Shown: positions 3,001 through 6,000 of the stretch, one piece after another
Layout: every line of letters starts with the position of its first letter
Position numbering within the stretch: position 1 is the first letter of the stretch
IMG/VR virus record: IMGVR_UViG_2537562231_000024
Span: 1 to 6,035 of that record
Length of the DNA stretch: 6,035 bases
Reading direction: 5' to 3' (one strand)
DNA from: a virus
Taxonomy: Duplodnaviria; Heunggongvirae; Uroviricota; Caudoviricetes
Position numbers: made by a program

Positions 3001-6000
3001 AATGGCTGGTTCCCGGATACAGATGGCGCACTCATCACCGGACTGACCTTTCTTGACCCCAAAGATGCCACACGGGTTCAGGGTTTTTTTCAGCATTTGC
3101 AGGTCAGGTTTGGTGGCGGGCCGTGGCAGGATGTCAAGGGGCTGGATGAAGTGGGCAGTGATACAGGCAGAACAGGAGAATGACATGAATATACTAAAAA
3201 AACTTATGCAGCGTCTGTGCGGTTGCGGAAAGCATGATGACCGTGAAAACGGGGAGTTACTTACAGCACAGCTGCGACTGGGACCGGCAGACATTCTGGA
3301 GTCAGATGAGAATGGTATTATCCCGGAGCAGGCCAGGGTAATCACGCAGGTGGTGATACTGGATGCGGATAAAAAGCAGATACAGTGCGTGGTAAGACCG
3401 CTGCAAATTCTGCGTGCTGACGGGACGTGGGAAAATATTGGCGGGATGAAATAGCCGACGGGTTCACAAAAACCGGAGTCCGGCTCCGGTTTTTGTTGTC
3501 ATGTAAGGCAGATGTGGTAATGAGAGCCAACTTACTGATAGTGTTTTATGTTCAGATAATGCCCGATGACCTTGTCATGCAGCTCCACCGATTTTGAGAA
3601 CGACAGTGACTTCCGTCCCGGCCTTGCCAGATGTTGTCTCAGATTCAGATTATGTCGCTCAATGCGCTGAGTGTAACGCTTGCTGATAACGTGCAGCTTT
3701 CCCTTCAGGCGTGATTCATACAGCGGCCAGCCATCCGTCATCCATACCACGACCTCAAAGGCCGACAGCAGGCTCAGAAGACGCTCCAGTGTGGCCAGAG
3801 TGCGTTCACCGAAGACGTGCGCCACAACCGTCCTCCGTATCCTGTCATACGCGTAAAACAGCCAGCGCTGACGTGATTTAGCACCGACGTAGCCCCACTG
3901 TTCGTCCATTTCAGCGCAGACAATCACATCACTGCCCGGTTGTATGCGCGAGGTTACCGACTGCGGCCTGTAGTTTTAAGTGACGTAAAACCGTGTTGAG
4001 GCCAACGCCCATAATGCGTGCACTGGCGCGACATCCGACGCCATTCATGGCCATATCAATGATTTTCTGGTGCGTACCGGGCTGAGAGGCGGTGTAAGTG
4101 AACTGTAGTTGCCTATGTTTTGCGGCAATGAGAGCAGAGATAGCGCTGATGTCCGGCAGTGCTTTTGCCGCTACGCACCACGCCTTCAGTAGCGGAGCAG
4201 GAAGGACATCTGATGGAAATGGAAGCCACGCAAGCACCTTAAAATCACCATCATACACTAAATCAGTAAGTTGGCAGCATTACCAGTTTTTTCGCATTGA
4301 TTATAAAATTCATCAATAATGCCTTGAATGTGGAATATATTCTTCTGGGGTAGGCCTCTTCACTAGAACATGTTCAATCTTTAGTTTCAGCTTCGTACAG
4401 AATACGAGCGGCTTCTTGCGTAACATTATACATTGCCTGCTCATCATTACCGCCAGCCCCAGCAATCGTCAATGCAACCCCAGCATAAATTTCTGGGTAG
4501 CTATGTGTAAATATATCCAGTGTATTTACATATTTCTCTTCCATTCCTGCATCATAACGAACCTTATTTATTCCCGTTGCCATTGATTGTGGTGGACTGG
4601 AGCCTTCTGCACGAAAATAGTGATGTGACAGATCCGAGATAGCTTTGCATCCTTCTGCTTGGCTTAAGCCTGGAGCGGCCCATGTCTTACCAAAATGCTC
4701 GGCAGCGTAACGTGTTGCAAGAGTGGCATCAGAGGAGGAACCGGATGTTCCGCTCATGACCGGTAGCCCAGCTTTATCACGCATAATTGTGCCGATATCT
4801 TGAGAAAGATCCATGCCTGTTGGTGTGCGGGTTGAGTGTGTACCGTTACGCTGAGCATCAATGCGGTTGTCTGCGCGGAATTTAACTCGCTCCTGAATCT
4901 TTAGCCTTCCAGCCAGCACTTGGCCAGTTTGAGCAAGCTCGAAACCAGAGAGTGCTTGTTCTTTTGTGAATGGACCTTCAGAACCGCACAGCATCATTGA
5001 GAAGGCAGAATGCGCACTGTCGGATAATTTTAGTCCACGACTACCGTAAAATGGTGAACCAGGTTTTGGCTCCTCTGAGCCAAGAGCCTCTTTGCCTAGC
5101 TGCTCGCGGTCGTTTCCATCCCAGCGTGTTTCCGTTTTCCAAAGGCCACGCTCCAGATGCCCCATCCATGCTGTTTGTTTGAATACAGGAGATTCTGGAT
5201 TGGTTAGCCCCTCAACGGTCGAACGCAGAATATTCTCTTCTGCTTTGCGATACCTCAGATAATTCTCTGCTCGTGTTTGCAGATGCTCTAATGATTTGTA
5301 ATTATTGTTGGAAAGTGTGATTTGTAGGAATGATCTAACAGTTATCGGCGAGTCAGCACCTGGCCGATAAGGTTGAGTTCCTATGTGGGCTTGGCTACAC
5401 AATCCATCCTTCAGAGTATTACTGTCAGTTGTATATATACCGATTTGTGAATCGCTTACAACTGGTTTGATTCTGTTCGGCATATCACTTGACGGTTTAT
5501 TATTTACGTTTTCATCATTTGGCCCAGTTGTGAGGAGTCCAGAAATACATCTTTGACTTAATTCGGGCTTTGCTGCAAACATATCTGCTATTCCTTATTT
5601 TATAAATGCATTTCCCTATTCTGGTTTGCATACATTTCTTGTGGCTAAAATAAACACTTGTCATCAATTTTGCAACCGTATGTTAACAAAATGAGTTGCT
5701 ATACCGATAAAGGGACACTTTTGCTTAGTTAACCACACCATTTTCTTCGGACATAGGAAATTCCCGGCATGTGGACGGGATTTTAGTCAGTGTATAAACC
5801 AGTCGTCCGCTGTTTCCCTGGCTTCCTGAAGTGTTTCCTGTACAAATTCGTGCGCGGACTCTTTATCTGTGGCTCTTAAAATAGTGAGTCCATCATTACT
5901 GGCAGATTTGATGATGATTTCTGCATTGTCATATCGTTTCCTGATACGGCGCAGCATTTCCTGTTGCAGGGCAGGAACAGAACCTTTTGGCATTTTGCTG

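Follow-up and report, generated by a model that had tools for sequence, protein, structure and literature searches.

What is encoded by the short open reading frame (ORF) that follows the side tail fibre gene in the IMG/VR virus record IMGVR_UViG_2537562231_000024 (Caudoviricetes)? The window analysed here is the whole stretch of 6,035 nucleotides (nt), positions 1 to 6,035 of that record, and the ORF in question, hereafter the small ORF, starts a single base after the stop codon of the fibre gene stf and codes for 89 amino acids (aa). A sequence-only reading had proposed that it may be an uncharacterised chaperone or accessory protein, expressed together with stf and specific to its collagen-type fibre. 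Judged by sequence comparison, the small ORF encodes, as a separate protein, a paralogue of the domain at the C-terminus of the fibre, since both copies match the Pfam family PF06820 (Phage_fiber_C, PfC) and align with each other at 31% identity.

The PF06820 profile was matched by residues 28-89 of the small-ORF product over its full length (profile positions 1-64 of 64) with a score of 119.2 bits (E = 1e-34), the Pfam gathering cut-off being 25 bits, and the alignment to the PfC domain of the fibre extended over 62 residues (BLASTP, E = 5e-10). The family phrog_576 matched the product from end to end (positions 1-89 of 89, E = 6.9e-60). Of the 174 homologue clusters found, the 120 listed all carry PF06820 in their precomputed domains and derive from Escherichia coli, E. 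albertii and Citrobacter rodentium. Databases already include the gene, under the PGAP name 'phage tail fiber C-terminal domain-containing protein' (WP_001023417-type), other short stand-alone proteins are listed as PF06820 members, and the orthologue of phage Sp5, ORF68, has been discussed in print, so that the family can no longer be called uncharacterised. The product itself has no shaft and is not a domain that ends a long tail fibre protein. It begins MNILKKLMQRLCGCGKHDDRENGELL and ends GGMK, and a short predicted helix and a Cys-Gly-Cys-Gly-Lys-His motif (CGCGKHDD at residues 12-19) take the place of the collagen helix. The 27-residue leader that holds these elements is the more variable part of the protein, and its helix (aa 3-11) was predicted by AlphaFold2 at low confidence; the pattern hydrophobic-KK...L-x-G-C-x-K is retained in an orthologue of 60% identity (P0126). 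No family other than PF06820, and no tail fibre assembly family, was matched in Pfam at E <= 0.1, which agrees with the earlier impression that the protein is unlike the Tfa protein of lambda; NCBIfam reported nothing for the small ORF and a sequence search of the PDB gave zero matches.

The distribution of the family is very restricted: in a profile search against 1.84 billion cluster representatives, no more than 84 proteins were recovered, most of which are pieces of the same E. coli genes. When 185,579 species were scanned with a single genome each, the only hits besides a probable contaminant contig came from E. albertii. With so few sequences, an analysis of covariation was impossible. 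We also noted a small ORF of 93% identity on a 725-nt contig labelled Xanthomonas pisi DSM 18956 (NZ_JPLE01000138.1, locus L092), which is most likely E. coli contamination of that assembly.

For the analysis of selection, we drew on 84 copies in 80 viral contigs, which represent 55 distinct alleles at the nucleotide level, and estimated the ratio of nonsynonymous to synonymous polymorphism (pN/pS) from summed pairwise ratios over related alleles, which makes the values rough but leaves the contrast between the reading frames clear. The ratio was 0.12 in the annotated frame as compared to 1.6-2.0 in the other two frames, showing that the small ORF is under strong purifying selection at the protein level. 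Within the protein, the PfC part yielded a value of 0.048 and the leader a value of 0.26. A first estimate of 0.47 for the fibre's own PfC domain was inflated by three misaligned or frameshifted alleles and was replaced by 0.22 after these had been filtered, so that constraint on the PfC domain is about 4-5 times stronger in the small ORF than in the fibre.

The start of the gene is also well preserved. The ATG one base after the stf stop, the AGGAG in front of it, the length of 89 aa and the CGCGKHDD motif described in the sequence-only reading were all seen in the sequence, and the junction GCAGTGATACAGGCAGAACAGGAGAATGACATG was the same in 56 of the 58 copies examined. The 1-nt gap between the stf stop and the small ORF is shared by 82 of the 84 copies, which places the gene consistently beside homologous fibre tips, while the start codon, the Shine-Dalgarno sequence and the 89-aa length were retained in 83 of the 84. 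Since the PF06820 and phrog_576 matches, the frame-specific pN/pS values and the conserved junction all set it apart from a chance ORF, the small ORF is a real, selected protein-coding gene. Its frame is open from position 3053, 132 nt upstream of the start (3053-3184) and overlapping the end of stf, and an ATG at 3146 would give a product of 102 aa; database entries of 89, 102, 115, 121 or 129 aa exist, as some annotators start upstream. The best Shine-Dalgarno sequence is that of the 89-aa start, which is also chosen by both PGAP and PHROGs and which we take as the predicted start.

Copies of the small ORF always travel with PfC-tipped fibres. Three fibre architectures were found upstream of it: the 437-aa siphovirus-type fibre with PfN, coiled coil, collagen and PfC, a podovirus-type fibre of 649 aa in locus L062, VT2-Sakai and AU5Stx1, and a fibre of 212 aa without collagen; it also adjoins the fibre gene of Lambda_2B8. 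The 212-aa fibre comes from a more distant Escherichia-like genome, is PfC-tipped, and its 3' end is overlapped by 14 nt by a 79-aa orthologue of 60% identity that has its own AGGAGG upstream and a hairpin downstream. Among 5426 complete E. coli genomes, the small ORF was present in 698 (6371 places) and the PfC segment of the fibre in 697 (6159 places), with about 10 copies of each per genome, and in the phage collection each was found in 296 records. The linkage is to the PfC tip and not to collagen, since the diverged orthologue adjoins a fibre without collagen repeats and since the distributions of the ORF and of the fibre tip agree. Co-occurrence across prophages thus bears out an association with the fibre, whereas the proposed specificity for collagen-type fibres does not hold. 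In addition, we observed a collagen-containing protein of 565 aa (P0146; locus L089, 3505-5202) on a contig of a sequencing-run assembly (Logan SRR17035117), which has four tandem PfC-like modules with a few Gly-X-Y repeats before each and a long collagen stretch after them; PfC-like units can accordingly occur side by side in one polypeptide, internal and repeated, and not only at the terminus.

The window protein is 93% identical over all 89 residues to orf59 of VT2-Sakai (NP_050558; Sp5 ORF68), and all but one of the differences are located in the leader, so that the PfC part differs at one residue. Sp5 ORF68, VT2-Sakai orf59, the 'gp59' of phi24B and phrog_576 represent the same protein at the same fibre junction and with the same downstream hairpin. 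In contrast to Sp5/VT2-Sakai, the copy in the window is located behind a siphovirus-type (J-lom-stf) EPclA fibre rather than the podovirus fibre of 645 aa, no further gene separates it from the conserved hairpin, past which cargo DNA and an IS1 are located, and its fibre gene is frameshifted. In Mondal et al. 2016 (PMC5155283), who made deletion mutants across phage Sp5, ORF68 is described as an 89-aa ORF consisting of PfC only; the authors did not find a frameshift signal and suggested that ORF68 may serve as a reservoir for fibre variation.

The PfC domain was defined by Ghosh et al. 2012 (PMC3368898) in the collagen-like fibres EPclA and EPclB of O157:H7. A 64-residue PfC fragment of EPclA formed a trimer and corresponds to the C-terminal globule of the dumbbell-shaped fibre, PfC allowed the collagen helix to refold, and both the fibre and isolated PfC trimerised from pET-type constructs that held their own coding sequence only; fibres with loss of frame are also listed in that study. 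The small ORF matches the same 64-position profile in full length and is predicted to be all-beta, as circular dichroism suggested for PfC, but it stands alone behind a 27-residue leader with helix and cysteines and not behind a collagen triple helix.

Two groups of small proteins encoded next to fibre genes invite comparison. Lambda Tfa has about 194 aa and is likewise encoded directly downstream of stf in the late operon, and the view that the small ORF occupies the accessory position of lambda-type phages is upheld by its location between stf and the remains of tfa. Unlike Tfa, the product of the small ORF is about half that size, lacks similarity to Tfa in sequence and is homologous to the fibre tip itself; moreover, it is reported to be dispensable, the fibre trimerises without it, and a tfa remnant lies beyond it. 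The gp38-type adhesins of T2, T6 and S16 and the Tfa proteins of Mu and P2 remain on the fibre tip. They too are small proteins encoded right after the fibre gene, and the small-ORF protein may, like them, be virion-borne; the mechanism proposed below is modelled on this analogy. It shows no sequence or detectable fold similarity to them (Pfam, PDB sequences, and Foldseek with a low-confidence model) and, in contrast to the gp38-type adhesins, it is nearly invariant rather than hypervariable and is not required for infection of K-12.

Evidence for expression of the protein comes from the proteome workbook of a cryo-EM preprint on gradient-purified virions of phi24B (doi 10.64898/2026.04.10.717836). 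The peptides VITQVVILDADKK and ADGTWENIGGMK, both unique to the small-ORF protein and both contained in the window protein, were detected in this dataset and assigned to the ORF at 39891-40295 ("gp59_start") as well as to artificial fusion entries, with the label "Spike or just gp59?" on the protein row; gp59 is not discussed in the main text of the preprint. In nearly all gel bands the spike had more spectral matches than the fusion entry; the one exception was EA1829 (25 for the fusion entry versus 24), a low-molecular-weight band that also contained a 74-aa protein. This hints weakly at a free protein of about 10 kDa as the source of the peptides.

The reading that we favour, tentatively and at a little below even chance, is that the small protein is a small, dispensable, self-trimerising accessory partner of the fibre's distal knob. 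It starts from the identity, paralogy, synteny, selection and peptide detection set out above, with dispensability taken from the literature, and from there we infer that the protein trimerises, binds to the fibre tip and may have an effect on adsorption. Since the isolated PfC of the fibre trimerises on its own, the small protein would probably be a homotrimer of about 30 kDa, which would dock on or co-assemble with the distal PfC knob by PfC-on-PfC stacking and/or by its N-terminal leader. As a dispensable accessory subunit of the tip, it could modulate tip stability or binding to natural hosts, whereas neither the folding of the fibre nor infection of K-12 would depend on it. The four tandem PfC-like modules of P0146 lend this reading indirect support.

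Several observations weigh against the accessory partner. Sp5 ORF68 is placed among the non-essential late genes in the text of PMC5155283, so that any role at the tip would have to be dispensable on K-12. Unlike the usual variable adhesin tips, the PfC part hardly varies, and when alleles of the fibre PfC and the small ORF were cross-tabulated every combination was present without sign of co-adaptation; the adjacency of the two confounds any allele association. In the stored phi24B data, two small-ORF peptides stand against 2267 spectral matches to the spike, and known non-structural proteins (Bor, Lom and a regulator) were likewise detected in that preparation, so that the small-ORF protein in these virions may be sub-stoichiometric or a contaminant. 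Structure prediction and fold comparison were uninformative: AlphaFold2 monomer models from alignments of 9 and 16 rows were poor (mean predicted local distance difference test scores of 50.8 and 53.9), and Foldseek searches of the PDB and BFVD with the low-confidence model returned no match better than E = 0.6; the PfC domain of the small ORF is probably ordered only as a trimer.

A stronger form of the accessory partner, conceivable but on balance unlikely, would be a true distal cap, that is, a detachable trimer on the knob, possibly stapled by the Cys-Gly-Cys motif, that alters binding on O-antigen-bearing hosts. Such an effect, if true, would concern the fibres of prophages that carry Shiga toxin and effector genes and would so far have been invisible in assays on K-12. 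The chaperone proposed in the sequence-only reading is weakened: trimerisation of the fibre does not depend on the gene, and phage Sp5 is reported to do without its copy, so that an essential role of this kind is unlikely. A non-essential assembly helper is a milder version that we nevertheless consider unlikely: the free PfC would transiently aid folding, registration or trimerisation of the fibre knob and then mostly be left behind, much as Tfa helps lambda Stf. The gene holds the position of tfa with only tfa remnants nearby, it is arranged for translation with the fibre, its apparent abundance in virions is low, and the nucleation of collagen-helix refolding by PfC (PMC3368898) would fit such a role, but recombinant fibre and PfC trimerise from their own coding sequence alone (PMC3368898), ORF68 is listed as non-essential (PMC5155283), and similarity to tail fibre assembly families was not found in Pfam or NCBIfam. 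The paralogy itself also speaks against a helper: to our knowledge, no fibre chaperone described so far is homologous to the domain that it assists.

We regard as improbable that the small ORF is a recombination reservoir or relic, that is, a spare PfC cassette recombining with the 3' end of the fibre gene whose protein has no role of its own. This was proposed by Mondal et al. (PMC5155283) and draws on the mosaic and shuffled alleles, on degraded extra copies about 1 kb downstream in 8 loci and on the chimeric protein P0121, which joins the N-terminus of the small ORF to the C-terminal half of the fibre PfC. A reservoir purely at the DNA level fits poorly because constraint on the protein exceeds that on the fibre PfC (0.048 versus 0.22), because 83 of the 84 copies retain the start codon, the Shine-Dalgarno sequence and the length, and because the 60%-identical orthologue shares the leader motif; peptides of the protein have been detected, and two paralogues with 31% protein identity are too dissimilar in their DNA to recombine efficiently. 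It is very improbable that a programmed frameshift or readthrough at the end of stf fuses the small ORF to some fibre chains as a C-terminal extension. The open frame from 3053, a run of seven T at 3084-3090 inside stf, the stop context TGA-C and the fusion entries made by the phi24B authors under the label quoted above could all be read in its favour. The ORF is in the +1 frame, however, whereas the heptamer, which is the only slippery run, would favour -1; since the heptamer is located inside the PfC domain of the fibre, slippage there would cost the fibre this domain, and the last sense codon GAA cannot re-pair in +1. Moreover, the junction peptide is absent from the stored phi24B data, the excess of the fusion entry falls in the low-molecular-weight band and not in the spike band, none of the 120 homologue clusters listed (of 174) exceeds 131 aa, and PMC5155283 reports no frameshift signal. 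On the grounds of frame, T-run position and lack of fused homologues among these clusters, the fusion was rejected.

An explanation to which we give hardly any credence is a released or anchored decoy, in which the free tip domain binds the fibre receptor on the lysing cell or its debris and limits superinfection or loss of progeny. The lipoproteins Llp of T5 and Cor act as receptor-blocking decoys in this manner, and the small protein is homologous to the presumed receptor-binding tip, is encoded beside it and has a conserved lipobox-like L-x-G-C motif. Yet a hydrophobic signal-peptide core is missing, the residues before the cysteine (MNILKKLMQRLCG; pre-motif residues MNILKKLMQR) being, as judged by eye, charged and too few for a lipoprotein signal, and the C. 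rodentium form has only 4 residues before the motif. At 31% identity to the fibre PfC and with its far higher conservation, a shared receptor is doubtful, and PADLOC gave no match for the small ORF. The lipoprotein and superinfection-exclusion idea was rejected for the missing signal core and the negative PADLOC result.

The features of the window are summarised in Table 1. In strain TR01, as in most viral contigs, stf is intact and codes for 437 aa; compared with that gene, the deletion in the window changes GAAGAAGAATG to GAAGAGAATG, and ribosomes starting at the stf ATG would stop at 2581, leaving the remaining 316 codons in another frame. Translational coupling is therefore an ancestral design that is inoperable in this copy as sequenced, so the earlier statement that the small ORF is expressed with stf applies to the intact copies and not to the window, where the small ORF and its Shine-Dalgarno sequence are themselves intact. 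The J gene has two 1-nt insertions near 209 and 364 relative to the gpJ gene of TR01, adding up to three single-base indels in about 3 kb of J and stf, all in short homopolymer runs, which may indicate a decayed prophage or an assembly error.

Table 1. Coordinates of features in the 6,035-nt window.
Feature	Position	Strand	Remarks
J, C-terminal part	1-1136		reads in three frames
lom	1207-1806
stf, EPclA-type side tail fibre (PfN, coiled coil, collagen, PfC)	1871..3183	+	broken by 1-nt deletion at 2233/2234
PfC domain of the fibre itself	2956..3147	+	Pfam E 1.5e-33; pN/pS 0.22 after filtering
Shine-Dalgarno AGGAG	3174..3178	+	6 bases 5' of ATG, within last stf codons
stf stop codon TGA	3181..3183	+	followed by single spacer base C3184 and ATG 3185-3187
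Small ORF	3185..3454	+	89 aa plus stop; stand-alone PfC-domain protein
N-terminal 27-residue leader	3185..3265	+	predicted amphipathic helix aa 3-11, CGCGKH aa 12-17
PfC domain of small ORF	3266..3451	+	aa 28-89; Pfam E 1e-34; AlphaFold2 predicts all-beta
Hairpin and T-run	3466..3496	+	perfect 13-bp arms, 5-nt loop; -22.7 kcal/mol, z -3.5

The hairpin directly 3' of the small ORF is kept in nearly all related loci, with variants in the loop, and the sequence common to the prophages ends just past it, where variable cargo with effector genes begins. The same hairpin is located behind the ORF in VT2-Sakai and an analogous one in locus L084; a scan for consensus terminators did not list it, and Rfam gave no family at threshold within the window. 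Another terminator-like hairpin (1834-1853) separates lom from stf, which would fit lom as an insert in the late operon with a terminator of its own. An IS1 element (about 3516-4284) interrupts the sequence about 20 nt past the downstream hairpin, where other loci continue ...GGCAGATGTTTG; its inverted-repeat arms are at 3526-3539 and 4262-4275, and its transposase ORFs are on the minus strand. It is followed by a 402-aa ORF on the minus strand (4374-5582) without match in Pfam, NCBIfam and PADLOC, the DNA of which is 99.8% identical to O145:H28 genomes and is annotated there as 'secretion protein EspV' or hypothetical, and then by a DinI-like ORF (5787-6035, minus strand) that runs off the window.

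Beyond the small ORF, remnants of tfa were seen in TR01 as a 67-nt piece right after it (locus L001, 3856-3922) and in Lambda_2B8 as a 79-codon ORF 2.5 kb downstream (locus L090, 6039-6228), past an NleG effector gene. A degraded second copy of the small ORF (VLDAAKKHIQ, an in-frame stop and VVRPLQIWRADG) is located about 1 kb downstream of the intact one in locus L019 (6047-6115) and likewise in L023, L024, L027, L029, L031, L032 and L076, and looks like a scar left by an earlier end of the prophage, cargo having entered between the two copies. The 92-aa protein P0121 consists of small-ORF residues 1-40 followed by the C-terminal half and tail of the fibre PfC, and is either a recombinant of the two paralogues or an assembly artefact.

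The earlier interpretation is thus partly supported, being right in so far as this is a fibre-linked accessory gene, wrong on its novelty and probably wrong on the chaperone. As corrected here, the product is a paralogue of the fibre tip domain and not a Tfa-like chaperone, and it is linked to the PfC tip and not to collagen. The gene is present in about 10 copies per genome in enterohaemorrhagic E. coli and in 296 phage records, most of them Shiga-toxin-converting, and it is tightly conserved even though it has so far been known only as 'not essential on K-12'. If the protein is part of the fibre tip, it would bear on how these phages find their hosts and hence on the spread of toxin and effector genes.

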